Shown one piece after another: positions 1 to 35,401 of a DNA stretch of 64,000 nucleotides (within the stretch, counting starts at the first letter, position 1; every line of letters begins with the position of its first letter). This DNA comes from an uncultured Chloroflexia bacterium (GTDB taxonomy: Bacteria; Chloroflexota; Limnocylindria; Limnocylindrales; CSP1-4), in assembly GCA_963833225.1 (NCBI GenBank), contig CAWHXD010000007.1:320001-384000 (forward strand), read 5' to 3'. A program made the translations under genes and the position numbers. Under the pieces are notes generated by a model, which saw nothing but the letters and a program-made list of their open reading frames with translations, searched no databases and had not been told where the DNA came from.

Positions 1-1
1 C

Positions 2-277
2 GGCGATGCACGCGTCCAGCCCGCCCCACGCGGCCACGAGCCGTTCGACTGCCCCAGAGATCGCGGCTTCGTCGGCAACGTCGGCAGGGAGGACGAGCGC
101 CTCCCCACCCTCGGCCGCGATCCGGGCCGCCACCGACTCGAGCTTGGCCGTCGTCCGGCTGACCAACCCTACGCGGGCGCCCTCGCGCGCAAACAGCAAC
201 GCGGTTGCCTCCCCGATCCCCGACCCGGCCCCGGTTATGAGCGCACGCTTGCCTGCCATGCGTCCGTTGCCCGTCAT
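2..277 (-). CDS. SDR family oxidoreductase (5' part; runs off the window edge)
   Basis: Manual translation MTGNGRMAGKRALITGAGSGIGEATALLFAREGARV shows the TGxxxGIG Rossmann motif; RBS AAGGAGG upstream. Confidence 0.9.
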   Translation of the reverse strand, partial: MTGNGRMAGKRALITGAGSGIGEATALLFAREGARVGLVSRTTAKLESVAARIAAEGGEALVLPADVADEAAISGAVERLVAAWGGLDACIA

Positions 278-309
278 TGCATGCCTCCTTGCGCAACCAG
301 ACCCTGCTG

Positions 310-552
310 TCAGGCGTCTGCCTCGATCCAGGCCATCGGCTCCAGGACGGGCACCTCCGTGCCCGGCGCATGGATGATCTCGACGATCACTCCCGCCGCG
401 GGCGCCTCGAGGTCCAGGTTGGCCTTCTCCGTCTCGATCTCGCCGATGACCTGGCCGGCGCTCACGGTTTCGCCGACCGACACCCGCCAGGGTCCGACGA
501 TCCCGAACTCCATCTCGTAGTTGACCTTCGGCATCGGCACCGCGACGCGCAT
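310..552 (-). CDS. Stand-alone lipoyl/biotinyl domain protein (80 aa)
   Basis: W.VSVGETV..G..IGEIETEKAN..LEAP..G; lipoylation Lys in ETEKA. Confidence 0.9.
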   Translation of the reverse strand: MRVAVPMPKVNYEMEFGIVGPWRVSVGETVSAGQVIGEIETEKANLDLEAPAAGVIVEIIHAPGTEVPVLEPMAWIEADA

Positions 553-1568
553 CAGGCGGGCACCTCGGCTTGCACGGCGTTGACTCCGGCGCCGCGCACC
601 GTATGGCGCACGGCCTCGACAACCCAGCCCGCCTGTGGCAGGACGACATTCTCCAGCTTGGGCGCCATGGGCAGCGGGACATTTCGACCGGCGACGCGGA
701 CGATACCGGTCTTGAGGTCACCGAATCCCTTCGCGGCGACGACCGCCGCCACCTCAGCCCCAAACCCGACCCGCTCGGGCGGTTCCTGGACGATCACGAG
801 GCGGCCCGTCTTGTGGACCGATTCGAGGACGGCGGCCTCGTCCCACGGGACGAGCGTCCGGAGATCGATGACCTCAACCGAGATGCCCTCGCCGGCGAGC
901 ACCGTGGCCGCCTCGAGCGCCAGATGCACCATCTTGGACCAAGCCACGATCGTGCAATCGGTGCCGACGCGCTTGATGTCCGCCACCCCGAATGGCACCA
1001 GGTGCTCGCCCTCGGGCACCTCGCCGTTGAGCATGTAGATGTGCTTGTGCTCCATGAACATCACCGGGTCGTCGAGGCGGATCGCCGTCTTCAGCAGACC
1101 TTTGGCGTCTGCGGGCGTTGCCGGGGCCGCAATGAGCCAGCCCGGGAGATGCGCGAAGAGCGCCTCCAGGCACTGTCCATGCTGGGCGGCGGACGACTTG
1201 TAGCCGCCGCCCGGCGTCCGGACGACGAGGGGAACCGAGACCTGACCGCCAGTCATGTAGCGGATCTTGGGGATCTGGTTCGTCAGCTGGTCCATCGCCA
1301 TCATCGCGAAGTCCATGTGCATCAGCTCGACGACCGGCCGAAGACCGGTGATCGCGCAGCCGAGCGCGACGCCCAGGAAGCCGTTCTCGGCGATCGGCGT
1401 GTTGAGGATCCGGTCGTCGCCGTAGTCGGTCGAGAGCCCCTGTGTGACTCGGAACGTCCCGCCCCATGGCTCGCGGAGATCCTCGCCGATCAGGAAGACG
1501 CGCGGGTCTCGGTCAAGCTCCTCGCGAAGGGCCTCGTTGAGGGCGGCGCGGTAGCGAAGCATCTTCAT
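552..1568 (-). CDS. 2-oxoacid/acetoin dehydrogenase E1 beta subunit
   Basis: ALNEALREEL, GEDL, NTPIAE, LRPVVELM, SAAQHGQCLEA; ATGA overlap with the alpha-subunit stop. Confidence 0.92.
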   Translation of the reverse strand: MKMLRYRAALNEALREELDRDPRVFLIGEDLREPWGGTFRVTQGLSTDYGDDRILNTPIAENGFLGVALGCAITGLRPVVELMHMDFAMMAMDQLTNQIPKIRYMTGGQVSVPLVVRTPGGGYKSSAAQHGQCLEALFAHLPGWLIAAPATPADAKGLLKTAIRLDDPVMFMEHKHIYMLNGEVPEGEHLVPFGVADIKRVGTDCTIVAWSKMVHLALEAATVLAGEGISVEVIDLRTLVPWDEAAVLESVHKTGRLVIVQEPPERVGFGAEVAAVVAAKGFGDLKTGIVRVAGRNVPLPMAPKLENVVLPQAGWVVEAVRHTVRGAGVNAVQAEVPA

Positions 1569-2560: not shown

Positions 2561-2586
2561 CGACGCCGACCCTCCTGTTCAAGTAA

Positions 2587-2608: not shown

Positions 2609-2857
2609 TTACGGTACCCTGCGCCCACGGATTGTGCACGCCGGACGGCGACCGAGGCTGGGGTGTCGTCCCTGCGAGGGTGGGGTCGGAGTTGAGATCG
2701 GAGCCAGTTGCCGAAGGCTTCACCGACGGCGGATGATGGTGATCGCATGGACAGACAGCGCGTGGCTGCCCCGACGCCCACGGCAGGGCCGCCGGTGCAG
2801 CAGGTGGAGGCGGCATTCCAGCTTCGTCCAATGGAACACCCACCACGAGAGGCCCCG

Positions 2858-3538
2858 ATGACGCGGACGCTGGTGCTGGTTCACACGATCCCCATCCTCG
2901 TCGACGTGTTCGATGTCTGGTGTCCCACGCAGCTTCCAGGCGTCCGCGTCCTCCACGTGCTGGACGAGCCGATGCTTGAGCGGGTCAAACAGCGGGGGCA
3001 TCGTGCACCGGAAGACGACGACCGCCTCGCCGAGCACATCGCCGGAGCGGAGGCGATCGGCGCCGACGCCGTGCTCGTCACGTGTTCCACCATGTCGCTG
3101 TCGGTTGAAGCGGTCCGTGCCCGTGCCCGGATCCAGGTGTTCACGATCGATGACCCGATGATCCGGGCGGCCGTCGGCATCGGCGACCGCATCGCGGTCG
3201 TCGCCACGGCGGCCACCACGCTCGAGCCCACGCGCCTGATGCTTGAACACGAAGGCGCCAGGGTTGGCCGCTCGCTGACCATCCGGCTTCGCCTCGTCGA
3301 CGATGCCCTCCCGGCACTCCTGGCAGGCGATCCGGACACGCACGACCACCTCGTCGTCACGGCTGTCAGGGAAGTTGCACAAGACGCCGATGTCGTCCTG
3401 CTCGCGCAGGCCACCATGGCGCGCGTCATGGACACCCTGGCGGAGCGCCCGGTGGCGGTGCCCGTCCTCGCGAGCCCGCAGCTGGCCCTCGCCGAGGTCC
3501 GGCGAGGTCTCGAGTCCCAGAGGCCGGCTTCTCGCTAA
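2858..3538 (+). CDS. Asp/Glu/hydantoin racemase family protein
   Basis: LVHT, DAVLVTCST, IDDPM, VATAATTLEPT, DVVLLAQATMA, PVLASP; only one of the two catalytic Cys is present. Confidence 0.75.
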   Translation: MTRTLVLVHTIPILVDVFDVWCPTQLPGVRVLHVLDEPMLERVKQRGHRAPEDDDRLAEHIAGAEAIGADAVLVTCSTMSLSVEAVRARARIQVFTIDDPMIRAAVGIGDRIAVVATAATTLEPTRLMLEHEGARVGRSLTIRLRLVDDALPALLAGDPDTHDHLVVTAVREVAQDADVVLLAQATMARVMDTLAERPVAVPVLASPQLALAEVRRGLESQRPASR

Positions 3539-3583: not shown

Positions 3584-5026
3584 TCAGGGCTGCTCGAGGT
3601 CCGCATCAGCCCGCTCAACGATTCCGGCGAGATCCCGCAGGACCTCGTCGGGCAGCGGCTCCACGACATGAGTGGCGAGGATCGCATGCGCCCGGTCACG
3701 GGCGCGGCCTTCCATCGACCGCATGCTGCCGGCCTCCCGGCCCCCCGAACCCCGGCGCTCGGCCAGGGGGAGGTCGATGAGCTCGCCCGTGCGGAAGTAG
3801 TCGATCGTGTGGTCATCAGCAAGGAAGTCGCCTCGCGGACCGACCCGGGCCAGGGCTTCGAAGCCGAGCGACTCCTCGTCCACCGAGATGCCACGCAGCC
3901 AGCGCCGGGCCATGGAAATCAGCTCATCGTCGATGACGAGCTGCACCGGGCTGAGCGCCATGACGGTCTGCACGCTCCCAGCCCCCACCACGAGGCGTCC
4001 CCCCGAGAGCACCTGCGCAACGGACAGGAGGGACTTCTGGAGCATTGCGTGCCCGAGGGTGAATCCATCGGCGGTCATGCCGATGGCCTGGGTGGGCAGG
4101 CCGTAGAGCTCTGACCCCAGTTGAGAGATGGCCGCCACGAGGAGGCCCACCTCGGGCGCTCCCATCAGGGCGTTGCCGCTGCGCATATCCGGCACGACCG
4201 GGTCCATGAAGAAGGCCATGGGGTGACCCGGTCGCTTCGTCTGCACCAAGGTCATGGTCCCCAGGTACTCGGCGTTGGCCTGGGCGAGGGTGCCCGCAAG
4301 AGTGATGGGGGCACTGATGCCGGCGATCGGCATGATGGGCAGGTCGAGCGGGATCCCGTAGTCGATGGCGAGGAGGATCTGCGCGGTGTCGTCCTCTTGG
4401 AGGAACAGCGGCGAGATGGGCGACGCCTGGTGGTGGATGAGCGGTCGCTCGGCGAGGGCCTCGCGAGTCCCCCGCACGGCGAGGGCCATCTCGATGAGGT
4501 AGCGCTGGTTCTTCAGGGTGAACGCATTGTGGATGATGCACGTGCGCTGGGACTTCAGCAGGGCGTGCAGGCTGTGGAGGTCCGCGGTCGGCTGCGGGAC
4601 ATCTCCGCAGTGGAGGGTGGCGACGCTGTGGATGTTGGGCAGAGCGTCCACGAGGGTCGCGAACTCCCGCCAGTCGGCGATGCGAGCCCGGTGGTGTTGC
4701 CCGTTCTCGAGGTCGATGTAGCCCGTGGCACCGCCCGGCACGCGAGCGTAGATGTCGCCATCGACGGTGACCGTGATGTCCTGCGCGGGGGTGCGCCCAT
4801 GGTACGTGTACGCGCGGGGGACGAGGGCGAGGCTGCGCTCGATCAGGTCCGGTGGGAAGCGCACCAGCTTCGTCACCCGGTCCACGCGCGCGCCGGCGCC
4901 CTCGAGCAGATCGAGCGCCTCCGCGTGGTCCACCAGCATCCCGATCTCGTCAAGGATCCGCAGGGACGTCTCGTGGACCCGCTGGAGGCCTTCCGGGCTC
5001 AAGACCCGCAGGAATTGCCCAGACAT
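3584..5026 (-). CDS. Trimethylamine methyltransferase (MttB) family protein, non-pyrrolysine
   Basis: VHETSLRILDEIG, SPISPL, APITLAGTLAQANAE, GAPE, QLVIDDE, GPRGDFL...HT; no in-frame TAG. Confidence 0.88.
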   Translation of the reverse strand: MSGQFLRVLSPEGLQRVHETSLRILDEIGMLVDHAEALDLLEGAGARVDRVTKLVRFPPDLIERSLALVPRAYTYHGRTPAQDITVTVDGDIYARVPGGATGYIDLENGQHHRARIADWREFATLVDALPNIHSVATLHCGDVPQPTADLHSLHALLKSQRTCIIHNAFTLKNQRYLIEMALAVRGTREALAERPLIHHQASPISPLFLQEDDTAQILLAIDYGIPLDLPIMPIAGISAPITLAGTLAQANAEYLGTMTLVQTKRPGHPMAFFMDPVVPDMRSGNALMGAPEVGLLVAAISQLGSELYGLPTQAIGMTADGFTLGHAMLQKSLLSVAQVLSGGRLVVGAGSVQTVMALSPVQLVIDDELISMARRWLRGISVDEESLGFEALARVGPRGDFLADDHTIDYFRTGELIDLPLAERRGSGGREAGSMRSMEGRARDRAHAILATHVVEPLPDEVLRDLAGIVERADADLEQP

Positions 5027-5142
5027 CGACAATCCTCCGAAGCTCCGCCCCTGATCGTGCCGCCGCGCTGGAACCAGGGCGGACGGTCGCCCGTGTCCAT
5101 GTCCAGCGAGATGGCCGCTGGCCCCGGGTCTGCGGAAGGGAC

Positions 5143-5162
5143 GTGGTCAACCGGTAAGCCAA
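5143..5162. promoter_or_regulatory. Island operator type A (GTGGTCAACCGGTAAGCCAA), overlapping the -35 of the TGGTCA-N17-TAGAAT promoter
   Basis: Matches the consensus of 4 other sites; lies in a divergent intergenic region. Confidence 0.7.
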
Positions 5163-5265
5163 CCGATAGAATACGGCAAGCGGACCGCCGGCTGGCGCTG
5201 TCGACGTCGTTGCGCTTGGCCGTGTCCGTCAGAAGCGACCCTACCCAGCTTCCGGAGGTCACCCG

Positions 5266-7632
5266 TTGGACACGTCGCAGCACACTGAAGCCGACGAGCT
5301 GTATGCGGCGGCGGCGCTCGATTTCGGGCACTACGAGATCCTCAAGGACCTCGTAGACGAGTGCATTGACCTCTCGCTCAACTGCCGGCAATCCGGCCAT
5401 CCGGGAGGCTCGCGATCGAAGGTCCACCTGCTGCTGGCGACGCTGCTGTCGGGGGCCATGCGCTGGGACCTGCAACGGCCCTGGCGCCGGTTTGGGGACC
5501 GCTTCGTCCTGTCCGCCGGCCACACCGTCCCGCTGGTGTACGCGACGCTGGCCATCCTCAACGAGGGGCTCCGGGCGCGCCACGAGCTTGACGGCGACGA
5601 GCGGTTCTCATTTCCCGACGACGGTCGCTGGGCACTCACCTGGGAGGACCTTCTCACGCTTCGGCACCGCGGCGGCCTGCCCGGCCATGCCGAGATGGCG
5701 GGCAAGACGCTGTTCCTCAAGGCCAACACGGGCCCGTCGGGCCACGGAATGCCGGTCGCGGCCGGCGAGGCGCTTGCGCTGCGTCTGGCGGGGTGCGAAG
5801 AGGTCAAGGTGTTCGCCGTCGAAGGCGAAGGTGGACTCACCCCCGGGGCCGCGCACGAGACGAAGAACACGGCTTGGGGGCTGGGCCTCTCGAACCTTGT
5901 CTTTCTCGTCGACTGGAATGACTTCGGGATCGATGTCCGTACCGCGTCGTCCGTCGTTCCCGGGGAGCCGGACGACTGGTTCCGGCCGTACGGCTGGCGC
6001 GTGGTGGGAACCGGGGAGGGGATGGAGTGGCCCACCGCTGTCCGGACGGTGCTCGAGGCGGCCCGTGGGGCGAACCCCGAGCGAGTGCCGAGCGTGGCCT
6101 GGTTCCGGACCCGCAAAGGGCGCGGGTATGGCAAATACGACGCGCCGTCGCACGGGGTGCCCCACGGCATGAACAGCCCGGAGTTCTGGGCAGCCCGCAA
6201 GGACTTCATGGCCCGCTATGGCGTCGCCTACACGGGCGTCGACGAACCAGCACCGAGTGACGCCGCTGACCGCCAGGCGCAGGCCGAGGAGAACTTCCGG
6301 GTCGTGGTTTCCGTGCTCCGCCGGGACCCGGACCTCGTCCGGTGGCTCTCGGACCGGCTCCTCGCGATCGCGGCGACAGTACCCGACGTGATCGCTGGCG
6401 CCACCCTGGGCGGACGGACCTCCGACGTCTTCCGTGACCCGCGATTCACGGACTTCCGGTCCTATCCGGCGGAGATGTATCAGGCTCCCGGCACACGGCA
6501 CCCGAACCGCGCCGCCCTCGGCGCGTGGGGATCCTGGGTCAATGCCGTGGCAAGGGCCGACTACGGACGCCCGTTGTTCATCGTCTGCTCGGCCGACCTC
6601 GCCGAGTCCACCAGCATTGCCGGGTTCGGCAAGGACTGGGGTGACCTACCGGGCTGGGGCTGGTACGAGCGCAACGGGAATCCCCGGGGAGTCGTCCTGC
6701 CCCAGGAGATCACGGAGTTCACGAACGCTGGGCTCCTCGCGGGCATGGCCAGCGTCAATCTGGCTGAGAACCCGATGACGGAGTTCGAGGGCTTCTGGGG
6801 CGCTTGTTCCACGTACGCCTCGTTCTCGTATCTCAAGTATGGGCCGCTCAGGCTGTTCAGCCAGATGGCCCAGGACGCGGACATGCGGCTTGGCAAGATC
6901 CTGTGGGTGGCGGGCCACTCCGGCCCCGAGACGGCCGAGGACTCGCGAACGCACTTCGGCATCTTCGCGCCCGGTGTCACCCAGCTCTTCCCGGAAGGCT
7001 CCGTTATCGATCTCCACCCGTGGGAGTACAACGAGGTCCCGGTCGTCCTGGGCGCCGCGCTCGCACAGGACGCTCCGATCGTGGCGTTGCACCTCACGCG
7101 ACCCGCGATCGAGATACCCGATCGCGCCCGGCTGGGCGTGCCCTCCCATTTCGAGGCCGGGCGTGGCGCCTACATCATGCGCGACTATCGTCCCGACCAG
7201 CCTCGCATGGGCACCGTATTCGTTCGGGGAACGGCCCCGACGGCCAACCTCTTGAGCGTTCTGGCGGACCTCGACCGGGCGGGCCTGAACGTGAAGATCG
7301 TGGCCGCGATCAGTCCGCAGCTCTTCCGGCTCCAGGACGCGCAGTACCGGGCAGCGGTCGTCTCGGAGGCGGACCGCTGGGATGCGATGGCCATCACCAG
7401 CGGGGCGTTCGCCTTGATGCGGGACTGGGTCGGTGGCCCGCTGGCCGCCGACTATTCCCTCTCGGCGGACTGGGACGACCGATGGCGAACCGGCGGCAGC
7501 ATCGAGGAGGTCCTGGCGGAGGCACAGCTGACGCCCGAGCACATCCTCGCCGGGATCGAGCGCTTTGCCCGCGACCGCGACGAGCGCGTACGGCGGCTCA
7601 GGGCACTGGTCGAGGAAGTGGCGGCGCCCTGA
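5266..7632 (+). CDS. Transketolase-like ThDP enzyme (788 aa, divergent)
   Basis: SGHPGGS, DRFVLSAGH, LPGHAE, NTGPSGHG, SADLAEST, GPETAEDSRTH. Confidence 0.85.
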   Translation: MDTSQHTEADELYAAAALDFGHYEILKDLVDECIDLSLNCRQSGHPGGSRSKVHLLLATLLSGAMRWDLQRPWRRFGDRFVLSAGHTVPLVYATLAILNEGLRARHELDGDERFSFPDDGRWALTWEDLLTLRHRGGLPGHAEMAGKTLFLKANTGPSGHGMPVAAGEALALRLAGCEEVKVFAVEGEGGLTPGAAHETKNTAWGLGLSNLVFLVDWNDFGIDVRTASSVVPGEPDDWFRPYGWRVVGTGEGMEWPTAVRTVLEAARGANPERVPSVAWFRTRKGRGYGKYDAPSHGVPHGMNSPEFWAARKDFMARYGVAYTGVDEPAPSDAADRQAQAEENFRVVVSVLRRDPDLVRWLSDRLLAIAATVPDVIAGATLGGRTSDVFRDPRFTDFRSYPAEMYQAPGTRHPNRAALGAWGSWVNAVARADYGRPLFIVCSADLAESTSIAGFGKDWGDLPGWGWYERNGNPRGVVLPQEITEFTNAGLLAGMASVNLAENPMTEFEGFWGACSTYASFSYLKYGPLRLFSQMAQDADMRLGKILWVAGHSGPETAEDSRTHFGIFAPGVTQLFPEGSVIDLHPWEYNEVPVVLGAALAQDAPIVALHLTRPAIEIPDRARLGVPSHFEAGRGAYIMRDYRPDQPRMGTVFVRGTAPTANLLSVLADLDRAGLNVKIVAAISPQLFRLQDAQYRAAVVSEADRWDAMAITSGAFALMRDWVGGPLAADYSLSADWDDRWRTGGSIEEVLAEAQLTPEHILAGIERFARDRDERVRRLRALVEEVAAP

Positions 7633-7708
7633 TGTCCATCACGGGCTCCAGCGCCCGCTCAGGGCGGCGCGGCCCAGCCGGAAGCACAGCCATCGGCCGG
7701 GAGATGGG

Positions 7709-8575
7709 GTGAGGTTCGACGCGAACCTATCGATCCTGTTTGGAGATCAACCGCTGCTGGATCGACCCGCGGCGGCAGCGGCGGCCGGGTTCGACGCGGT
7801 CGAGATGTGGTGGCCGTTCGAGGACCTCGTCCCGGCGGCGGCCGACGTGGATCGCCTCGTGCAATCCTTCGGCGAGGCGGGTGTCGCCCTGGTCTCCATG
7901 AACCTGACGCTGGGCGATGTCAACGCGGGCCAGCACGGCCTGGTCGCGCTGCCCAGCGAACGGTCCCGGTTCCGGGACCATCTCGACGCGGCTGTGGCCA
8001 TCGCCGGTCGCCTCGGGGGCCAGGTGCTGAACGCCCTCTATGGGAATCCCCCTGGCAGGATCGCCCGTGACCTCCTCGATGACACGGCCGTGGAGAACCT
8101 GGCCCTTGCCGCGCGGCGCGCTGCCGGGATCGGAGCGACAGTCGTCGTGGAGGCCCTCAATCCCGTTGATTTCCCGCGCTACGGGCTCCATCGAACCGGG
8201 GACTCCCTGGCCCTCGCCGATCGGGTGCGGGCGGAGACCGGGGAGGACGTCTCGATCCTGTTCGACGTCTACAACGTCCAGCGCTCCGAAGGTGACCTCC
8301 TCGCCCGGATCGCCGCGCACGCCGGCCGCTTCGGCCACGTCCAGATCGCGGACGTCCCCGGGCGACTCCGGCCCGGGACGGGCGAGATCGCGTTCGAACG
8401 CGTCCTGCCCGCGCTCGAGGCAGCCGGGTACCGTGGCTACGTCGGGCTCGAGTACCGGCCGTCGGCAGACCCGGCCGACACATTCGCCTGGCTTCCCGTC
8501 GAGCATCGCCGCACCCGTGCCACTGGCGCGGCACGCGAGCGACACGGGGGGCGCGATGATCGTCCGAGCGCGTGA
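7709..8575 (+). CDS. Hydroxypyruvate isomerase (Hyi/OtnI) family TIM-barrel protein
   Basis: RFDANLSILF, AAAAGFDAVE.WWP, VEALN, FDVYN.Q..EG, HVQIADVPGR..PGTGE, GLEY. Confidence 0.88.
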   Translation: MRFDANLSILFGDQPLLDRPAAAAAAGFDAVEMWWPFEDLVPAAADVDRLVQSFGEAGVALVSMNLTLGDVNAGQHGLVALPSERSRFRDHLDAAVAIAGRLGGQVLNALYGNPPGRIARDLLDDTAVENLALAARRAAGIGATVVVEALNPVDFPRYGLHRTGDSLALADRVRAETGEDVSILFDVYNVQRSEGDLLARIAAHAGRFGHVQIADVPGRLRPGTGEIAFERVLPALEAAGYRGYVGLEYRPSADPADTFAWLPVEHRRTRATGAARERHGGRDDRPSA

Positions 8576-8614
8576 TGGGTGATAGCGGGAATCCGGTGGC
8601 ACTACAATAGTCCA

Positions 8615-11459: not shown

Positions 11460-11479
11460 TTGGTCCACCGGTGTACCAA
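11460..11479. promoter_or_regulatory. Island operator type A (TTGGTCCACCGGTGTACCAA)
   Basis: Near-perfect palindrome at the expected transcription start. Confidence 0.8.
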
Positions 11480-12768: not shown

Positions 12769-12794
12769 ACGCTGCCCAGACCAGTGTTCGATCA

Positions 12795-19021: not shown

Positions 19022-19041
19022 TTGGTCGACCGGTGCACCAA
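19022..19041. promoter_or_regulatory. Island operator type A (TTGGTCGACCGGTGCACCAA)
   Basis: Near-perfect palindrome immediately after the promoter. Confidence 0.8.
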
Positions 19042-21032: not shown

Positions 21033-21075
21033 GACTGCACCGTCGTAACGGCTCCGCCATGCTCAAGATGGAGGT

Positions 21076-22785: not shown

Positions 22786-22867
22786 CCGTGAGCGACCCAG
22801 CTGCCCGGCCTGCTGCTCCCGGGCAGACCGACCCGCGCCGCCGCAGACAGGAAGACAGGGAAGACGA

Positions 22868-26066: not shown

Positions 26067-26086
26067 TTGGACGACCGGTTGACCAA
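26067..26086. promoter_or_regulatory. Island operator type A (TTGGACGACCGGTTGACCAA)
   Basis: Consensus match adjacent to a TATGCT -10. Confidence 0.75.
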
Positions 26087-26124: not shown

Positions 26125-26146
26125 GCGGTATGACCGGCCTGACCAG
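26125..26146. promoter_or_regulatory. Operator type B (GCGGTATGACCGGCCTGACCAG), directly after a TAGGAT -10
   Basis: Shares GGTATGACCGG with the site at 2587-2608. Confidence 0.5.
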
Positions 26147-26202
26147 TGGTAGCATCGTCTTGCCCGGGCCGCGTCAGGGTCCGGGGTTTGGAGGTTGATC
26201 CG

Positions 26203-27268: not shown

Positions 27269-28507
27269 GTGGAGCGAGACATTCAGCGACCCGAGGGTGT
27301 CGTCACCCGACGCCGCTTCCTCTATATCGCCGGAGGTACGGTCACCGTTGCGGCAACAGGCAGCTTCCTGGCTGCATGCGGTTCCGGCGGATCGACCGCG
27401 ACGCCCGTACCCGCCGGGGCATCGTCGACGCCCGTACCCGCCGGGGCATCGTCGACGCCCGTACCCAGTGCGCAGGCCTGCACCGATGTGGGTGGTGTGC
27501 TCAACCTGTTTACCTGGGCTGGCTACGAGGGCACTGATGTCCCGGCCATGAAGCAGTGGTGGGACCAGAGCGGCATCACTCTCAACGTGAAGTACCTCGG
27601 CAACGAGAACATGGTCACGTTCATGAAGGCTCCTGGCCACGAGATCTGGGATGCCAACACGGTGAACCAGGGTGACAACAACGCCTACTTCGAGCAGGGG
27701 ATCATGTCGGAGGTGACCGTTGACGAGGTCCCCGAGATGGCCGGCATGTACTCGGGGATCAAGGACAACCCCATCTTCAAGCTTCGCGATGGCGTGTACA
27801 ACGCCGTTCCGTGGACGATGGGCCCCCTCGGTATCAACTACATCAAGGGCAAGATCGACCCGGTCACGAGCTACGCTGACGTCCTTGCGCCGCGCTTCAA
27901 GAACCGAGTTGGCTGCTTCGACGACGCGCTCAACATGATCTCGACCGCCGCATGCGCGGTGGGCCTTGACCCGGCGGTTCTCACCAGCGATCAGCTCCAG
28001 GGCCCCGTCAGGGACTGGCTCGTTGCCCTTCGGCCGCAGCTCAAGCTGATCTCGCCTTCACTCGGCGATCAGCTTTCGACACTCGTCAGCGGAGACGTCG
28101 ACCTCCAGCTGGTCGGGCTGATCTGGAACATCCTTCAGGGTCGGCAGCAGGATGTCGAGGTCGAATTCGTTTACCCGTCCGAGGGTACGTACGGCTTCGT
28201 GGACTGCATCGCGATCACCCCCTGGGCGCCGAATCGCTGCGCGGCACTCGCATATGCCAGGGCCACGATGTCTCCCGATACCGGGGCCCCCCTCAACGCC
28301 TCAATTGCGGGACTCAGCACGGTTGACGCGGTCAATGAGAAGATGAAGGAGACGAACCCTGACGAGCGGGGCGTCTACCCCGACAACGTCGAGCAGGACT
28401 TCATGAGCAAGATGAAGTGGAACGTAAGCCACACTGATCCGAACGGTGAATATGCGACGAAGGACGAGTGGACCACCGTCTGGACCGAGATCAAGGCGCT
28501 CGGGTAG
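27269..28507 (+). CDS. PotD-like ABC substrate-binding protein (Tat lipoprotein)
   Basis: VTRRRFL, FLAAC, LNLFTWAGYE, VPWTMG, P.EG. Confidence 0.85.
   Translation: MERDIQRPEGVVTRRRFLYIAGGTVTVAATGSFLAACGSGGSTATPVPAGASSTPVPAGASSTPVPSAQACTDVGGVLNLFTWAGYEGTDVPAMKQWWDQSGITLNVKYLGNENMVTFMKAPGHEIWDANTVNQGDNNAYFEQGIMSEVTVDEVPEMAGMYSGIKDNPIFKLRDGVYNAVPWTMGPLGINYIKGKIDPVTSYADVLAPRFKNRVGCFDDALNMISTAACAVGLDPAVLTSDQLQGPVRDWLVALRPQLKLISPSLGDQLSTLVSGDVDLQLVGLIWNILQGRQQDVEVEFVYPSEGTYGFVDCIAITPWAPNRCAALAYARATMSPDTGAPLNASIAGLSTVDAVNEKMKETNPDERGVYPDNVEQDFMSKMKWNVSHTDPNGEYATKDEWTTVWTEIKALG
27399..27466 (+). repeat. 27-bp perfect tandem repeat x2.5 encoding a TPVPAGASS linker
   Basis: Unit cgacgcccgtacccgccggggcatcgt. 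Confidence 0.9.
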
Positions 28508-28537
28508 CTTCACCCGTAGCGGCGGGAGTCACTCTCT

Positions 28538-29401
28538 ATGAGCCACCGTCGGCAACTCGAGGCCATCCTCGAGTTGCCGCTGGTGATCGGCCTGCTGGGG
28601 ATCATCGTTGTCCCCGCCATCGTGCTCTTCGGCTATTCGCTGTTGGTCTGGGTTCAATACGCTCCAACCGGATCGCCGACCCTCGCCAATTACATCAAGA
28701 TCCTGAGCGACCCACTCTCAGCCACGCTGGCCATCAACACGCTCCTGATCGGCGTGCCCACGGCGCTGATCGCGATCATTGGCGGCTACGTCCTTGCGTA
28801 CTACATCACGTTTGGCACGGGGCGTGGTCGCCAGCTCATGTTCATCCTGGTCGTGACGGCGCTCATGGCCAGCTACCTCGTCCGGGTGTACGCGTGGCGC
28901 ACCCTATTGGGGGAAACCGGGATCCTCAACAGCGCACTCATGGGCGTGGGGATCGTCGACAAACCAGTCGAGTTCATCCTGTTCTCGAAGGCCTCAGCGG
29001 TGATCGTCGAGGTCAGCATCTTCATGCCGCTCGCGGCGCTCATCTTCTACGCCGCCTTGTCAGGGATCCCCTCATCGTTGCGCGAGGCTGCGCGCGACCT
29101 GGGAGCCAGCCGCGCGCTGGCGCTGCGTCGCGTGACGATCCCGCTGACGGGGCCAGCGATCTTGTCCACATCGGCGCTGATCTTCTTTCTGGCGGTCGGA
29201 GACTTCATCACGCCAGTTTTCGTCGGCGGTCCCGGCGCCGTCACTGTCGGCACGAGAATCGTCGCGTACGTGAACGGCACAGGGGACTACGGCATGGCGG
29301 CAGCGTGGTCATTCGTGCTGCTCGGCGCATTCGTCATCATCTTCGTTGGGCTGCGACGCCTGATGAAGACCGGCGGCTTCCTGCCGGACCGGGTGAACTG
29401 A
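28538..29401 (+). CDS. ABC permease (PotB-like)
   Basis: SYLVRVYAW, LREAARDLGAS. Confidence 0.9.
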   Translation: MSHRRQLEAILELPLVIGLLGIIVVPAIVLFGYSLLVWVQYAPTGSPTLANYIKILSDPLSATLAINTLLIGVPTALIAIIGGYVLAYYITFGTGRGRQLMFILVVTALMASYLVRVYAWRTLLGETGILNSALMGVGIVDKPVEFILFSKASAVIVEVSIFMPLAALIFYAALSGIPSSLREAARDLGASRALALRRVTIPLTGPAILSTSALIFFLAVGDFITPVFVGGPGAVTVGTRIVAYVNGTGDYGMAAAWSFVLLGAFVIIFVGLRRLMKTGGFLPDRVN

Positions 29402-29402
29402 C

Positions 29403-30212
29403 ATGCGTCGGATCTCCATCCCCTGGCTCGCCATCTCAGCAACCTCGTTCCTCGTGTTCCTCTATTCACCGCTTGCGGTGGCGACCCTCTTTGCATTCAA
29501 CAGCGGGCCGAGCCTCCGGTGGCCACCTGAGGGGCTCTCGCTGCGTTGGTTCGAGCGGATGTTCTCCGACCAGAGGTTCCAGGACGCGCTCATCCTCAGC
29601 TTTCAGGCCGCGTTGCTTACGGCCGTCCTGGCCACGGTGATCGGGACGATGGCCTGCTTTGCCTTCACCCGGTACCGCACTCGGACGGCCGCGGGGGCCG
29701 AGGCGCTGGGGCGACTGCCTGCCCTGCTACCGCCGCTGTTCATCGGCATCGGTTTCGTGGTGCTGATGCGAATCCTCACGTTGACGCCGGGGTTCGCAAC
29801 CATCGTGGCAGGGCACACGGTCGTCGCCCTTCCTTGGGTGATCCTCGTCGTCATTGCCCGCCTGCGGACCTACGACGTCGAGCTTGAGGCCGCCGCGCGT
29901 GATCTGGGGGCCAGCCCGCGGCAAGCCTTCCTGAATGTCACCCTGCCGTTGGTCGCTCCGGCGCTCCTCGGGGCGGCGCTCCTCGGGTTCTCCTGGTCGT
30001 TCGACGAAACGCTTGTGACGGTGTTCACGTCGGGGGCCGAGACGACCGTCCCGATGTTCATCCTCGGCAAGCTGCGACGCCTTATTGACCCGTCGGGCAA
30101 CGCCGTCGCGGTGATCCTCCTCGTCATCCCGTGGCTTGCCTTTGGTCTGGCCGCGATCTTCCTCCGCCGCTCAGGCGGCATCACCGCCGTCCTTGGCCAG
30201 CGGACCCGCTAG
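29403..30212 (+). CDS. ABC permease (PotC-like)
   Basis: FLYSPL...FAFN, GLSLRWF, LEAAARDLGAS, SFDE. Confidence 0.9.
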   Translation: MRRISIPWLAISATSFLVFLYSPLAVATLFAFNSGPSLRWPPEGLSLRWFERMFSDQRFQDALILSFQAALLTAVLATVIGTMACFAFTRYRTRTAAGAEALGRLPALLPPLFIGIGFVVLMRILTLTPGFATIVAGHTVVALPWVILVVIARLRTYDVELEAAARDLGASPRQAFLNVTLPLVAPALLGAALLGFSWSFDETLVTVFTSGAETTVPMFILGKLRRLIDPSGNAVAVILLVIPWLAFGLAAIFLRRSGGITAVLGQRTR

Positions 30213-30246
30213 CCGGCAACGGCCCCAATGGAGCGATACGTCGACC

Positions 30247-31398
30247 ATGACGCTTGACCCGCTTGCGACCCCCAGCGCTCAGAGTTCGGCATCGGAAGGT
30301 TCGCAACAGGGATCCGGCGCCCTCGCGCTCCGGGGGATCACGCGACAGTTCGGGACGGTCATGGCCGTCAACGGAGTATCTCTTGACATCCCGGCCGGGT
30401 TGTTCGTGAGCCTGCTCGGTCCGTCGGGCTGCGGCAAGACGACGCTCCTCCGGATCATCGCGGGGCTGGAAACGCCTGACGCCGGGGCCGTGCTCATCGA
30501 CGACGCTGATATCACTCGTCTTCCGCCCGAGCGGCGACCATTCAACATGGTCTTCCAGCGCTATGCCCTGTTCCCCCACCTCACGGTCCACGACAACGTC
30601 GCATTCGGGCTCACCATCAACCGGCGGGAGCGACCGCCGAAGGCGGAGGTCGAGAGCCGCGTTGCGAAGATGCTCGATCTGGTGGACCTGGCGGGGTACG
30701 AGGGCCGGTATCCGGCCGAGCTGTCGGGCGGGCAGGCACAGCGTGTGGCGCTGGCGCGGGCGCTCGTCCGCCAGCCCAGGGTCCTGCTGCTCGACGAGCC
30801 GCTGGCAGCCCTCGACCGGAACGTCCGGCACCAGGTCCGGGAGGAGCTGCTGCGCATCCACGTCGAACTCGGAACGACGTTCATGTTCGTGACGCACGAC
30901 CAGGACGAGGCACTCTCGATCTCGTCTCTGGTCGCCCTCATGAACGCAGGTCGGTTCGAGCAGGTTGCCGACCCGGAGACGCTGTACCACCAACCGGCGA
31001 CGCTGTTTGCGGCCCGGTTTGTGGGTGCAGGCTCGCTGCTGGACGGCATTGCCGCTGCCCACGGCCCCGACGGCACGGTCGAGGTGGACCTGCAAGGCGT
31101 GCGCTTCGCGAGCACTGATGCGGGCGCGGAGCCCGGGCAGCCCGTAACGGTGCTGCTGCGACCCGAAGAGCTGCAGCTCGTCGAGCCCGGCACTGGACGG
31201 ATCGACGGCGTCGTCGTCACCTGCACCTTCTTTGGCTCGTACTTCGAGGTGAAGTTGCGATCGGGCCTCGGCCTCATCCGGCTCCGCGAGCGCAGCCATC
31301 ACGAGCCGGGGAGCACCGTGGGGATCAGCTGGCCGGACGACGCTGGCATCGCCTATGCGGCGACGACAAATCAGGGCCAACCGATCGAGGGTGTCTAG
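30247..31398 (+). CDS. ABC ATP-binding protein (PotA-like)
   Basis: GPSGCGKTT, VFQRYALFPH, LSGGQAQRVALARAL, VTHDQDEA, TOBE-like tail. Confidence 0.92.
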   Translation: MTLDPLATPSAQSSASEGSQQGSGALALRGITRQFGTVMAVNGVSLDIPAGLFVSLLGPSGCGKTTLLRIIAGLETPDAGAVLIDDADITRLPPERRPFNMVFQRYALFPHLTVHDNVAFGLTINRRERPPKAEVESRVAKMLDLVDLAGYEGRYPAELSGGQAQRVALARALVRQPRVLLLDEPLAALDRNVRHQVREELLRIHVELGTTFMFVTHDQDEALSISSLVALMNAGRFEQVADPETLYHQPATLFAARFVGAGSLLDGIAAAHGPDGTVEVDLQGVRFASTDAGAEPGQPVTVLLRPEELQLVEPGTGRIDGVVVTCTFFGSYFEVKLRSGLGLIRLRERSHHEPGSTVGISWPDDAGIAYAATTNQGQPIEGV

Positions 31399-31556
31399 GC
31401 GGAACGGACCTGGCCAGCAATCCGCACGCCCGTCCGGTCGGGAGACCACATTGCCTCCACGGCGTCCCGAGGCGGAATCAGACCAGGTGGCCGTTCGCAC
31501 CACTTGATGGCGTGTTGAGCCCAGCCGCTCGACGGCTGGCGAAGGAGAAGGCAGAC

Positions 31557-32843
31557 ATGACAAAGAGCGCGACAGTGCGCGACCCTCGTCCGCGCTACCC
31601 GCTGGCAGTCGGCCCGACAGGCCGGTACCTCGTCGATGCGGATGGAACGCCGTTTCTTGTCCACGGCGATACCGCATGGTCGGTCATCGTCGCGACGACG
31701 AAGGAAGAGGCAGAGCGCTACCTGGAGGACCGTCGTCGCAAGGGAGTGAGCGCAATCATCGTCAATCTCATCGAGCGCTGCTTCGCCCAGGACCCGCCGC
31801 GGAATGTGTACGGGGATGAGCCCTTCACGACGCCCGGCGACTTCTCAACCCCCAACGAGACGTACTTCGACCACGTTGACTGGATCCTCACCAAGGCGGC
31901 CGAGAAGGGTCTCCTCGTCATGCTCGCGCCGGCATACCTCGGGTACCGCGATCCGCATTGGGAGGGATATCACAACGCGCCGGAAGGCTGGTACGCGGAA
32001 GTCCTTGATAACGGCGTCGAGAAGTGCCGCGAATACGGCCGCTATCTCGGGCGCCGGTATGGCGGCTTCGACAACATCGTGTGGGTCATGTCAGGCGATC
32101 GCTGCCCTGGCGCCGCGCTCGAGCACATGCGCGCCATGGTCGACGGCATTCGCTCCGAGGACGCACCCCATCGCCTGTTCACTGCTCACGTCCACCCGGA
32201 GTGTCGTGCCCTCGAGGAGTACCCGGATGATCCGTGGCTGACGGTCAGCCAGACCTACACCTATGCCATCGTCCACCGCAAGCTCCTGGTGGACTACAAC
32301 CAGAAGCCGGCACGTCCGAACGTCCTGTTTGAGTCGACCTACGAAAACGACTGGAACTCGTCCGCCCTCCAGATCCGACGACAGGCGTACTGGGCTCTCC
32401 TCTGCGGCGGTTGCGGGCAGTTCTTCGGGAACACCCCGCTGTGGAACTTCGCGGCAGGGTGGCAGGAGCAGCTCGAGTCGCCAGGCTCGATCGCGATGAC
32501 GCACGTGAGAGCGCTGTTCGCCTCCCGACGCTGGTGGGACCTGGTGCCCGATCAGGAGCACGCCCTCGTCAGCGATGGGATCGGTGAGTTCAATGGCCTC
32601 GACTTCTGTGCGGCCGCGATGACTCCTGACGGAACGCTCGCGATGGCTTACGTGCCCACGCCGAGAACGATCACCGTGGACATGACGGCACTCGCCACAG
32701 GCCGGGTTGCAGCCAGATGGTTCAACCCTGTCTCCGGGGCGTACGTGTCAGGCGGGACGTACCGGACGACCGGCAAGTGGCCCTTCACCCCGCCTTGGGA
32801 TCATGACGCTGTGCTCGTGCTCGAGACGGAGCCGGCCGTCTGA
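31557..32843 (+). CDS. DUF4038 / GH140 (apiosidase-like) glycoside hydrolase with C-terminal beta domain; no signal peptide
   Basis: RYLVDADGTPF..HGDTAW, YLEDRRRKG, YGRYLGRRY...NIVW..SGD, ES.YE, RRQAYW, WW.LVPD, ARWFNP. Confidence 0.8.
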   Translation: MTKSATVRDPRPRYPLAVGPTGRYLVDADGTPFLVHGDTAWSVIVATTKEEAERYLEDRRRKGVSAIIVNLIERCFAQDPPRNVYGDEPFTTPGDFSTPNETYFDHVDWILTKAAEKGLLVMLAPAYLGYRDPHWEGYHNAPEGWYAEVLDNGVEKCREYGRYLGRRYGGFDNIVWVMSGDRCPGAALEHMRAMVDGIRSEDAPHRLFTAHVHPECRALEEYPDDPWLTVSQTYTYAIVHRKLLVDYNQKPARPNVLFESTYENDWNSSALQIRRQAYWALLCGGCGQFFGNTPLWNFAAGWQEQLESPGSIAMTHVRALFASRRWWDLVPDQEHALVSDGIGEFNGLDFCAAAMTPDGTLAMAYVPTPRTITVDMTALATGRVAARWFNPVSGAYVSGGTYRTTGKWPFTPPWDHDAVLVLETEPAV

Positions 32844-33029: not shown

Positions 33030-34115
33030 CTATGCGTCGCGGTATCGCGACGAGAAGAGCCTGCGGGGGTTCTCAACCAGGATCGTGTTGATCTGGTCCT
33101 CGGTGACGCCCTGCTCCCGGAGCCGTGGCAGGAATTCGCGGAGGAGGTAGCCAAAACCACCTCCCCCGTACGCCTTGAGCATGATCTTCATGTGGAGGTC
33201 CATCGAAAGCAGGACATTGTTGATGAAGCCGGCATCGATGAGCCGCTTGACGTCAGTGGCGATCTCGGAATCGCACAGGCCGATCCCCCGGACGCCCCAG
33301 TTGAAGTCCGAGCTGATCGTGTCGTAGCCAAGGAATGCGCCGCGGCGCGCGATTTCGAGCTGGTCGTCGAAATCGATTGGGCGGATGGTCACATGATCGA
33401 TGATCGTGTGCCGGATATCTGCCCCCTCCTCCTCGACGATGTCGAGGATCCGTTGCCGGGTGCCCGCCGGTGACACGCCAAGCGTATGGATGCTGAGCGG
33501 AACGCGAGTACGGCTCGATGCCCTGCACGATGCGCGCAGGTTCTTCTGCTCCGCGGCACTGAAGTCCTTGTCGATGCCGATCTCGCCGATGATGCCCGCG
33601 CGCACCCCGGTGCCGGGGATGCCCTCCGTGAGGTCGCCCACGACTTCGTCGGCAATGTCATCTGCCGACATGGCCTCGAGCTTCGGTGGGTGTGAGAGCC
33701 CAATGTAGTATCCGGCGCCCACGACGATGGGGACGCCCGATTGGCGACTGATCTGCTGTACCCCCCGCGCGTCGCGCCCGAGGCCATTGAGCGTCTGATC
33801 GACGACCGTACCCCCGCCCCACATCACGTAGTCACGAAGTTCAGCCGAGACGAGCGCGACATCGTTGACGCGCTGATTGTCACGGTTCGACTGGGGAAGG
33901 GCGCGCACCTCGCCGAGGATATCCATCGTCAGAGGCCGATTGAAGAGGTGTGCCCGCGACACCTCCTTCGGCTCCGGGCCGTTGACCCCGGAGTCGATGA
34001 GAACGTGCTCGTGCACGAGGGTGATGCCGAGGTCCTCCACCGGGATCGGACCGGTCACGGTCATCACGGTGCCACTATCCACGCCGATGCCGGGGTAGCT
34101 TGGTTTCTGGTTCAC
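33030..34115 (-). CDS. Phosphotriesterase-related (PHP-type) metallo-lactonase
   Basis: GITLVHEH, GIIGEIG, IHT, DH, LLSMD, ILVENPRR. Confidence 0.9.
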   Translation of the reverse strand: MNQKPSYPGIGVDSGTVMTVTGPIPVEDLGITLVHEHVLIDSGVNGPEPKEVSRAHLFNRPLTMDILGEVRALPQSNRDNQRVNDVALVSAELRDYVMWGGGTVVDQTLNGLGRDARGVQQISRQSGVPIVVGAGYYIGLSHPPKLEAMSADDIADEVVGDLTEGIPGTGVRAGIIGEIGIDKDFSAAEQKNLRASCRASSRTRVPLSIHTLGVSPAGTRQRILDIVEEEGADIRHTIIDHVTIRPIDFDDQLEIARRGAFLGYDTISSDFNWGVRGIGLCDSEIATDVKRLIDAGFINNVLLSMDLHMKIMLKAYGGGGFGYLLREFLPRLREQGVTEDQINTILVENPRRLFSSRYRDA

Positions 34116-34178
34116 TGGTGACCTCCCTGGTAGTCGCCCTGGCGATCGTCGATGCCAAACCTCCCCTCGCCAAACCGG

Positions 34179-34198
34179 TTGGCCGACCGGTTGACCAA
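34179..34198. promoter_or_regulatory. Island operator type A (TTGGCCGACCGGTTGACCAA), with an extra ACCGGT unit at 34174-34179
   Basis: Directly downstream of a minus-strand TTGACC-N18-CAAGAT promoter (34231-34202). Confidence 0.75.
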
Positions 34199-34477
34199 TC
34201 TATCTTGCTCCTTGCTCGGCAAGTCGGTCAACGGCAGGTTGGCGCTCGGCGGACTCCCGTCGCAACGGACCATCGGGCCAGATCGATTTGCATCAGCCCC
34301 CGGCTGGCTCAGGGTGCATCCGCACCTTCCGTCAGGGCGGCGACACCGCGGGCGGAGAGGTGTGCGCCTTCGGCCACAGCCCAGCCTCCGAGGGGGTAGC
34401 CAGAACCGCGATCCATGAGCCACGGCCCTGTCGCGGTTCGGAGGCGAGCGCCTCGCCGAGCCACCTGTGGCACGACA

Positions 34478-35401
34478 TCATCGTCCCAGACCTTCCTCCA
34501 TCAGCGGCTCGAGCCAGTCTGGGATCTCGCGACCACCGACCCTGACGAACAGCGACTCGTACCCGGGCAGGCCCGACAACATCGACCCGACCTGGCCCGA
34601 CGACATGGATCCCCGGTCGTGCTCGGCCTGGATGAGCAGCGGCAGCAGCCGCACGTCGCCGGCGGTGCAGATGCCGGTGACCTCGGGCCGGGCGAGCACG
34701 AATGCCACGGCAGCGGTCACGTATGCCTGCTCGTCCATCGGCTCATACCAGGTCGCGTAGGTGGCGCCCTCGGATGTCTTCCAGAGGTTCCGAGCGATGG
34801 TCTTGATCACGCGCAGGCCCACGTCCTGTGCCGTGATCTCCTCCAGCAGGGCGTCAACGTCGTGCTGGTACCGCGCATCCTGCGCGAGGCGGTAGTTCCA
34901 GGGCGTGATGACCGAGTCGAACGGGAACCTCCGCAGGGCTTCGAGATGCGTGGCGGGCGCAGCCATCCCGTGCCCGGTGATGCCGATCCCGCCGACGAGT
35001 CCCTCCTCCCGTGCCTTCACGGCACCCTCGATCGCCCCTCCCGACCGTGTGGCCCTGTCCAGGTCCTCGAGATCGCCGACAGCGTGGAGCTGGATCAGGT
35101 CCACGTGGCTCACCCGAAGGCGCTCGAGCGAGCGACGGATGCTGTCGTAGGCGCCGCTCGACGTCCGGTCGCCGGTCTTGGTCGCGAGGAAGATGCGGTC
35201 CCGGATCCGGCCCATCCAGCGCCCCAGGTGGAGCTCCGAGTCGCCATAGTCCGCGGCGGTGTCGAAGTGGTTGATCCCGGCTTCCAGGGCGAGCTCGATG
35301 GAGCGATCCGCGACCTCGTCGGGTACGTCAGCCAGCCCCGCCCCGCCGTAGACGAGTACCGAGGTCAGGTGGCCGAGGCGTCCGAAGCGGCGTGTCTCCA
35401 T
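34478..35401 (-). CDS. Aldo/keto reductase
   Basis: GINHFDTAADYGDSE, FLATKT, SLERL...VDLIQLH, GITGH. Confidence 0.92.
   Translation of the reverse strand: METRRFGRLGHLTSVLVYGGAGLADVPDEVADRSIELALEAGINHFDTAADYGDSELHLGRWMGRIRDRIFLATKTGDRTSSGAYDSIRRSLERLRVSHVDLIQLHAVGDLEDLDRATRSGGAIEGAVKAREEGLVGGIGITGHGMAAPATHLEALRRFPFDSVITPWNYRLAQDARYQHDVDALLEEITAQDVGLRVIKTIARNLWKTSEGATYATWYEPMDEQAYVTAAVAFVLARPEVTGICTAGDVRLLPLLIQAEHDRGSMSSGQVGSMLSGLPGYESLFVRVGGREIPDWLEPLMEEGLGR

Follow-up and report, generated by a model that had tools for sequence, protein, structure and literature searches.

Gene content and extent of the cluster

The DNA considered here is a stretch of 64,000 nucleotides (the window) from an uncultured soil or sediment bacterium, positions 320001-384000 of contig C7 in a metagenome-assembled genome (G000; assembly 3.89 Mb, ~71% GC, 86% complete). 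Its first 35.4 kb hold a cluster of catabolic genes, which we consider, with somewhat better than even confidence, to be the right-hand part of an accessory, mosaic supercluster that is predicted to be GntR-controlled and to serve the catabolism of one or more amine-bearing or N-acylated carbohydrates. Genes were called from open reading frames (ORFs) and codon-position GC content, and their proteins were scanned against Pfam and NCBIfam. The supercluster spans at least 61 kb (G000:C7:294018-355452) and extends about 26 kb to the left past the window edge; annotation was widened to C7:280-320 kb because operator variants were found left of the window. The whole region encodes four GntR/FCD regulators and three ABC importers, two of each inside the window. 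An earlier reading of the window made from its letters (the sequence-only reading) had proposed a co-regulated island of ~35 kb. The gene classes that it named are all present in the window according to the Pfam and NCBIfam scans, and its co-regulation is borne out by the operators described below; its extent is not, since the cluster runs past the window edge and covers no less than 61 kb.

Three thiamine diphosphate (ThDP) systems are encoded in the window: an E1 alpha/beta pair, a 788-aa transketolase_N-like protein (TK788) and an ALS-like protein. At the left edge, the 5' part of an SDR gene (SDR_0, 1-268, minus strand; adh_short over residues 168-253 of the open frame; 83% identical in genome G061) crosses the window boundary and reaches C7:319498. 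The E1 beta-like subunit (552-1570, minus; Transket_pyr and Transketolase_C; 87% identical in G061) and the E1 alpha-like subunit (1565-2560, minus; E1_dh; 83% identical in G061) come next, followed by an Asp/Glu/hydantoin-racemase family protein (2708-3538, plus; PF01177) and an MttB-like methyltransferase (3584-5032, minus; PF06253, 237 bits). The frame of the latter is open under translation table 11 and scores 342 bits against TIGR02369, which has a cut-off of 525; thus, we assign it as a non-pyrrolysine MttB-like protein. TK788 (5266-7632, plus), at ~790 residues, is recognizable solely in its transketolase_N part. Downstream are a Hyi/OtnI-like AP_endonuc_2 isomerase (7640-8575, plus, start approximate; TIGR03234 252 bits versus a cut-off of 353, OtnI 202 versus 325), a tandem pair of GntR/FCD regulators (8579-9406 and 9410-10174, plus) and a DUF4432 protein resembling aldose-1-epimerases (10200-11312, plus; PF14486 302 bits; PDB 3ty1 68 bits).

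The central part of the cluster begins with a ribose-type (CUT2-type, Peripla_BP_4) ABC importer consisting of a lipoprotein binding protein, a fused ATPase and a permease (11626-15376, plus), and continues with a DMFase-large-subunit-like amidohydrolase (15766-18042, plus; DMFA2_C, PF20254, 299 bits) and a second SDR (SDR_W, 18039-18809, plus), which is 70% identical to SDR_0. An 85-aa ORF with a lipoprotein-like signal (LVGC) and no Pfam match lies between the permease and DMFase-like genes (15453-15707). The unit at 19195-23923 (plus) encodes an NAD-epimerase (19195-20202), an MBL hydrolase (20199-21032), an ALS/Gcl-like ThDP enzyme (21076-22785) and a TAL/FSA-like protein with a weak TAL_FSA match (about 22823-23923); the four genes have the same order in G061, where they are 75-90% identical. 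To their right lie a frameshifted gene for a putative ApnL-like lactonase (24112-26023, plus; NF049900), a class IV (BCAT-like) aminotransferase (26146-27150, plus; PF01063; PRK08320 265 bits versus a cut-off of 363), a PotABCD-like ABC importer of the PotD/SBP_bac_6 type with a TAT-lipoprotein binding protein, two permeases and an ATPase (27269-31398, plus), and a cytoplasmic GH140/DUF4038-like glycosidase (31512-32843, plus; PF13204). The last two genes are on the minus strand: a PTE-family hydrolase, a putative lactonase (33030-34115; PF02126, 218 bits; 67% identical to the copies in G061 and in genome G032), and an aldo-keto reductase (AKR, 34478-35452) at the right edge. No operator was found for the AKR itself, so its membership in the regulon is uncertain.

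From 36 kb on, the window encodes housekeeping functions (a sigma factor, TetR, ADH, an imuA-imuB-dnaE2 cassette, PNP, GAPDH, PGK and enolase), which places the right border of the cluster near 35.5 kb. The GC content is 63-69% over window 1-35 kb and 70-77% further right. The cassette at 45956-54646, comprising an imuA-like gene (RecA fold), imuB (IMS) and a dnaE2-type polymerase gene, is typical of an SOS mutasome.

Left of the window, the cluster continues with a GntR/FCD regulator, an SBP_bac_1-type importer (binding protein and two permeases), a second GntR/FCD regulator, a lipoyl-less E2 catalytic domain, a split transketolase, a class III aminotransferase, an IolO-like AP_endonuc_2 protein, an FAH-family protein, a second E1 alpha/beta pair, a URO-D-like protein, an SDR and a glyoxalase-fold protein. 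The E2 protein (G000:C7:313330-314013), a 227-aa 2-oxoacid dehydrogenase catalytic domain without a lipoyl domain, adjoins the split transketolase; similar lipoyl-less proteins come after E1 pairs in genomes G305 and G421. The far-left operon encodes a 2-hydroxyacid dehydrogenase, LsrK, LsrF, RPE and a BhcC-like protein, with a divergent SorC/LsrR-type regulator (PF04198, 201 bits). Both Lsr proteins of this module (C7:294018-300656) score above equivalog cut-offs (LsrK 611 versus 528, LsrF 469 versus 297). The operon is followed by the leucyl-tRNA synthetase gene (C7:291045-293624), which appears broken into two ORFs, one with the anticodon domain and the other with the catalytic and editing domains; assembly indel errors are the suggested cause.

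Finding the LsrK operon places a sugar kinase ~22 kb left of the window start, under a different type of regulator. Neither a kinase nor a PdxA-family or RuBisCO-like gene was found by Pfam and NCBIfam in window 1-64000, so the sequence-only reading, which had seen no sugar kinase, apionate oxidoisomerase or RuBisCO-like protein, was correct for the whole window. The flanking DNA, where it had thought that kinases or canonical apiose genes might lie, does hold a kinase, ~22 kb outside the window; of the canonical apiose genes, those of the PdxA, DUF1537 and RuBisCO-like families were not found in the 86%-complete genome. The far-left operon resembles the Lsr module for AI-2/pentanedione in having LsrK, LsrF and a divergent SorC/LsrR-type regulator, but it lies outside the window, no ACCGGT palindrome was detected beside it, and the island's binding protein is not LsrB (33 versus 384 bits). 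The adjacency of the Lsr operon and the supercluster is also seen in a second genus (G421).

Operators and GntR/FCD regulators

The intergenic DNA of the window carries a 20-bp palindrome, TTGGTCnACCGGTnnACCAA, centred on ACCGGT. With up to three mismatches allowed, ten matches were obtained, which correspond to five sites read on two strands (5143, 11460, 19022, 26067 and 34179); the expected number was 0.10, and none of 100 shuffles reached ten matches. These class A operators lie in the divergent MttB/TK788 promoter region (5143-5162) and upstream of the CUT2-type importer operon (11460-11479, no mismatches), the epimerase-to-ApnL operon (19022-19041), the aminotransferase/importer/GH140 operon (26067-26086) and the PTE gene (34179-34198). 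A variant (class B), ATCATACCGGTCATACCAC with the reverse complement GTGGTATGACCGGTATGAT, is located between the E1 operon and the racemase gene (2589-2607), and G061 has this motif, as GTGGTAgGACCGGTATGA, upstream of E1 alpha. Together, the six sites face six to eight transcription units, in agreement with the sequence-only reading that the units of the island carry one of two related operators.

The sites are almost confined to the cluster. In the whole genome (3.89 Mb), all six sites with up to two mismatches fall in C7:308773-354179, as does one of the six sites with three mismatches, and ACCGGT occurs 14 times in the ~5.6 kb of intergenic DNA of the region. They are also conserved: G061 has class A-like sites upstream of the aminotransferase gene (746131, matching window 26067), the PTE gene (738038) and the ribose-type binding-protein gene; G032 carries the equivalent of window 11460 upstream of its importer; and on two metagenome contigs a site separates a TAL-like gene from a GntR gene whose identity to the first regulator of the window is 57-65%. 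No operator sites were detected in 722 kb of control neighbourhoods (385 kb around TK788 homologs and 337 kb around distant ApnL-like genes). The operator at 5143 overlaps a promoter-like sequence, TGGTCA-17-TAGAAT (5144-5172), the sole promoter-like site to overlap an operator. A terminator-like hairpin (18954-18970) just precedes the operator at 19022; terminator-like counts in the scan were not above those in shuffles.

Each of the four GntR proteins combines a GntR helix-turn-helix (HTH) with an FCD domain. The two in the window share 48% identity with each other and 47-56% with a third copy, which is encoded left of the window; the fourth is only 30-34% identical to the other three. The operator counts, the near-restriction of the sites to the cluster and the conserved sites make co-regulation well founded at the sequence level, and the region is a real regulon with a conserved predicted GntR/FCD repressor-operator system. 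The palindrome in most of the promoter regions would fit repression relieved by a pathway intermediate, probably a carboxylate. Known FadR/FCD-type regulons (DgoR, LldR, NanR and PdhR, the models of which were matched below cut-off) share the GntR HTH and FCD effector domain, the GGT..ACC half-site palindromes over promoters and the catabolic operons with importers. What differs here is the scale: four paralogous regulators, two operator variants, at least 61 kb and more than ten units.

Modular composition and distribution

Comparison of gene distributions across genomes indicates that the island is a composite of modules. Module I is a 15-gene core consisting of the E1 alpha/beta pair, an SDR, the PTE, epimerase, MBL, ALS/Gcl-like, TAL/FSA-like and ApnL-like genes, the class IV aminotransferase, the PotABCD-like importer and the GH140-like gene. 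Module II comprises the ribose-type importer, the DMFase-family amidase and an SDR, and Module III the racemase, MttB-like, TK788, Hyi-like, two GntR and DUF4432 genes. The 15 core genes are contiguous in G061, where they form a single plus-strand block (67-91% identity); in the window they are in three separate pieces. When one genome was scanned for each species, only two relatives of the ApnL-like gene came up, one of them that of G061. The ribose-type importer and SDR adjoin the core block in G061, i.e., Modules I and II are adjacent there as well.

The DMFase-like gene has a distribution of its own. Among 36 genus-mates searched, only G032 has a full-length ortholog, which is found with SDR and PTE genes opposite the importer; the search of 100 kb around this module revealed no core gene. 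In G061, a remnant of 55 residues with two TGA stops occupies the syntenic position (C11:729093-729257). The GH140 gene, too, shows irregular copies: G061 has a partial extra one (C11:751629-752108) upstream of the full one, and the GH140 of G421 matches in three pieces.

Orthologs of TK788 (55-77% identity) are present in 85 of 400 other genomes of the phylum. However, none of 20 such neighbourhoods contained another characteristic island gene, the only matches being generic SDR, ABC, 2-hydroxyacid dehydrogenase and SorC families, and TK788 was therefore rejected as a pathway marker. A second TK788 copy in the host (G000:C7:120455-122788) has one in-frame TAG, and a paralog of the MttB-like gene lies ~5 kb away. 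Distant homologs of the ApnL-like protein (31-39% identical) were identified in 18 of the 400 other phylum genomes, in varied contexts: in 19 neighbourhoods, an MBL gene occurred in four, a GntR/FCD gene in three (and also at an Acidobacteria locus, L017), an SDR gene in about half and GH140 in two, with PTE, E1 alpha/beta together with E2, and a class IV aminotransferase once each.

Relatives of the TAL-like gene were found on 27 metagenome contigs of 1.1-7.5 kb. Their neighbours were a class III aminotransferase gene directly upstream (five contigs), a racemase-family gene (four), a ROK regulator (three), an AstE/AspA-type deacylase (two), an AP_endonuc_2 protein (two, one of them 53% identical to the Hyi-like gene), the combination of GntR, SDR and MBL (two, with an ApnL-like gene on one), an amidase (one), an FAH protein that is 72% identical (one) and a split transketolase (one). 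G305 has two genes of the TAL-like kind that share a stretch of ~25 kb with three URO-D-like genes, lactonase-type genes, a GntR/FCD regulator, an ApnL-like gene, an MBL gene, a lipoyl-less E2 domain and two E1 systems. The LsrK/LsrF/RPE operon has orthologs in G421 (64-80% identical), where they are found beside GH140, ApnL-like, PTE, DUF4432 and E1/E2 genes. Together, G305, G421 and the contig neighbours point to a gene-family toolkit that recurs in the lineage, which counts against pure chance co-location; the genomes that carry it are all related and thus are not independent samples. That island gene families recur together in G061, G305, G421 and the metagenome contigs also speaks against the concern, raised with the sequence-only reading, that the genes might show no conserved co-occurrence. 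G305 also encodes a RuBisCO-like protein (contig C73; L159:7305-10453), which has as neighbours a split transketolase, a SorC regulator and a frame containing both Aldolase_II and SDR domains. This frame comes from a rough ORF call and possibly merges two genes; the locus may represent a different pentose or tetrose-acid pathway.

Proposed substrate and route

The route that we propose would start with the import of a single amine-bearing or N-acylated carbohydrate or a small set of related ones, or of their glycosides. The GH140-like protein would deglycosylate them in the cytoplasm, the DMFase-like amidase would remove the N-acyl group, and the aminotransferases would turn the amine into a carbonyl. 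SDRs would then convert the sugar to a lactone to be opened by the ApnL-like, PTE and MBL hydrolases, and ThDP enzymes and the TAL/FSA-like aldolase would cleave the carbon chain, which would not need to be phosphorylated first. The numerous paralogous pairs in the island (the SDRs, E1 pairs at 39-50% identity and three GntR copies at 47-56%) point to branches that run in parallel on related substrates, not to a single linear route of 30 steps.

The best hint of an amine-bearing or N-acylated carbohydrate is the joint presence of the DMFase-like protein, two aminotransferases and the PotD-like binding protein, along with the amide hydrolases encoded next to TAL relatives. The DMFase-like protein aligns over its full length with the DMFase large subunit 6lvb (residues 4-754, 306 bits) and with an N-acetyl-(R)-beta-phenylalanine acylase (8i5a, 269 bits). 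It retains Y399, Y440 and E521 of 6lvb, which we take to be the iron ligands, and the YLAY, YDxH and HPEY positions are conserved. The likeness to these two amide hydrolases thus comprises end-to-end homology and the Tyr/Tyr/Glu set; the difference is that the island copy sits in an operon with sugar-importer, SDR and lactonase genes. DMFase itself is an alpha2beta2 enzyme with a small subunit; no gene for such a subunit was recognized in the island, where no reference small-subunit sequence was compared.

Several observations weigh against this reading. Where the core is intact, the amidase is missing or has decayed, as in core-bearing G061, where the gene is a remnant, and the DMFase module of G032 has no aminotransferase within 100 kb. 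Thus, the amidase is not essential to the core, which weakens the hint of N-substitution. The core is also rare, having been found in one other species among the genome representatives scanned, with a close TAL ortholog (78% identical) in one of 400 phylum genomes (G305), so the synteny evidence rests on few, related genomes. G061 has only the divergent GntR type beside similar sites, leaving the pairing of regulators and operators ambiguous, and promoter-like counts did not exceed those in shuffles. Most NCBIfam scores are under the curated cut-offs, and all enzyme assignments are at the family level; in comparisons with solved structures, the best matches were 57 bits for the ribose-type binding protein (40.5 bits to 5ibq, presumably an apiose complex), 43 bits for the PotD-like one and 29 bits for the TAL-like protein, the ApnL-like protein matched none, and no ligand emerged from these matches. 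Finally, a +1 frameshift interrupts the ApnL-like gene: an additional A at 24302 (GAAATCC versus GAATCC in G061) separates its first 62 codons (window 24112-24304) from the rest. The read-derived contigs that were compared are short relatives (90-99% alike), and the only one to span 24302, a low-depth metagenome contig of a related population (~93% alike), lacks the extra base. Given this contig and the split leucyl-tRNA synthetase gene, an assembly indel is as likely as a pseudogene.

For the substrate, then, the suggestion of an N-substituted compound made by the sequence-only reading holds in part: amidase homology and the amide hydrolases and aminotransferases beside TAL-like relatives favor it, and the dispensability of the amidase to the core speaks against it. 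As for its single kinase-free route, a kinase-free scheme is plausible within the GntR-controlled part, as judged from the genes present; the mosaic modules, the paralogous pairs and the LsrK/LsrF/RPE operon 22 kb to the left make one such route for the whole supercluster doubtful. Kinase-free sugar catabolism as such has precedents in non-phosphorylative sugar oxidation and in the sulfo-TAL and sulfo-TK routes for sulfoquinovose. The island resembles them in the sequence from dehydrogenase to lactonase to sugar acid and in C-C cleavage by transaldolase- or transketolase-type enzymes; it differs in lacking a sugar-acid dehydratase, a KDG-type aldolase and sulfonate genes and in having aminotransferases and an amidase. 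No described pathway that we found matches the substrate of the island, in line with the earlier view that the route is unfamiliar. A bolder version of the proposal, which we consider rather unlikely, is a phosphorylation-independent, undescribed route of uncultured Chloroflexota for an N-acylated amino sugar or amino-polyol glycoside. A DMFase-type iron amidase, transaminases of fold types IV and III, an ApnL-family lactonase, a TAL/FSA-like aldolase and ThDP lyases would replace the usual kinase/deacetylase/deaminase logic, and one GntR/FCD family would switch all of it through the ACCGGT palindrome.

The best placed of the alternatives, although still doubtful, is that the region assembles independent sugar and sugar-acid pathways with no common substrate, whose paralogous GntR/FCD regulators kept similar operators. 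On the one hand, the modules differ in distribution, there are four regulators, two operator variants and three importers of different classes, and the distant ApnL-like genes occur in varied contexts across the 19 neighbourhoods. On the other hand, an identical class A operator fronts units of Modules I, II and III, families of different modules recur together elsewhere in other arrangements, and Modules I and II are adjacent in G061 too.

It is improbable that the substrate is already anionic (a sugar phosphate, sulfonate, phosphonate or uronate), with TAL- and TK-like enzymes and lactonases acting without a kinase as in the sulfo-TAL and sulfo-TK routes. No kinase is present in the GntR-controlled part, importer components score against PhnT/PhnU/PhnV-type models, and the PTE protein matches a phospho-furanose lactonase model (73 bits). 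The PotD/FbpA class of binding proteins includes sugar-phosphate and aminoethylphosphonate binders, and the MBL family includes the phospho-lactonase UlaG. However, every supporting match is far under its cut-off, the Xsc equivalog is not reached (274 versus 676 bits), and no family of sulfite exporters, phosphonatases or phosphatases came up in the scans.

The lead suggestion of the sequence-only reading, that D-apiose, a similar branched-chain sugar or an apioside is degraded by a kinase-free route, appears about equally improbable. It has some points in its favor. The glycosidase belongs to GH140 (PF13204, 228 bits versus a gathering threshold of 26.5, plus Collagen_bind_2; no signal peptide), its closest relatives among solved structures carry the name apiosidase, the ApnL family is represented, and the cluster has a split transketolase and AP_endonuc_2 isomerases. 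The non-oxidative apiose route uses an apiose isomerase, apulose kinase and a split apulose-4-P transketolase, and ThDP enzymes resembling ALS and E1 have known roles in branched-sugar chemistry. Oxidative D-apiose clusters, as reportedly described by Carter et al. in 2018, combine ApsD-ApnL-ApnO-OiaK with RuBisCO-like OiaC/OiaT; split transketolase and AP_endonuc_2 isomerase families are said, in the same work, to act in the non-oxidative route. In the island, the split transketolase and AP_endonuc_2 proteins of the left extension matched transketolase, IolO and Hyi models below cut-off, the models used being generic rather than apiose-specific. Features common to the island and the oxidative clusters are a sugar dehydrogenase, a member of the ApnL family, an ABC importer whose binding protein is of the ribose type, and a connection to plant glycans by way of GH140.

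The likeness does not extend to the specific enzymes of the oxidative route. The ApnL-like gene is the only one in the genome to match the ApnL model (NF049900), in two frames of 231.9 and 25 bits (230.7 in the window scan), far under the cut-off of 750. In the 86%-complete genome, no match was found for PF04166 (PdxA, presumably the family of ApnO), for PF07005 (DUF1537, which we take to be that of OiaK) or for the RuBisCO-like PF00016; the control search matched in five of 14 genomes for PF04166 and was positive for the other two. No other apiose-named NCBIfam model was among the matches listed. The GH140 protein is only distantly similar in sequence to solved apiosidases (122 bits to 8t9w, annotated as 'Apiosidase', and 98 bits to 3kzs/5msy), and the ribose-type binding protein is not nearer to 5ibq than to ribose binders. 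Beyond what apiose clusters contain, the island has amidase, aminotransferase, ThDP and TAL-like genes. For the D-apiose pathway, ApnO-OiaK-OiaX are named in PMC12994016. Among the matches listed in the literature on apiose and apionate lactonase, DUF4432 and GH140/apiosidase, there was no description of this gene set, and those on GH140/apiosidase included none on cytoplasmic GH140 clusters. Thus, an apiose-like substrate is not supported, and an amino or N-acyl carbohydrate is, on the genes and their homologies, the more likely substrate.

A biosynthetic cluster for a modified sugar or sugar-derived natural product can be set aside as barely conceivable: the biosynthesis of deoxy- and branched sugars likewise employs ALS- and E1-like ThDP enzymes, NAD-epimerases and aminotransferases, but three binding-protein-dependent importers indicate uptake, a glycoside hydrolase and several lactonase-type hydrolases are present, and no glycosyltransferase, nucleotidyltransferase or exporter family was seen in the scans.

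As it stands, the supercluster is a well-supported regulon, of a kind often met in metagenome-assembled genomes. Its three binding proteins, encoded at window 11626-12768 and 27269-28507 and at C7:315133-316539, and its operator offer starting points for screening ligands and assaying regulators in a lineage without a cultured model. If the core is one pathway, it would provide first functions, in a sugar context, for several large and poorly characterised families, namely cytoplasmic GH140/DUF4038 proteins, non-apiose ApnL-like proteins, DMFase-like amidases and a divergent TAL/FSA clade, and it would add a kinase-free scheme of carbon-chain cleavage.

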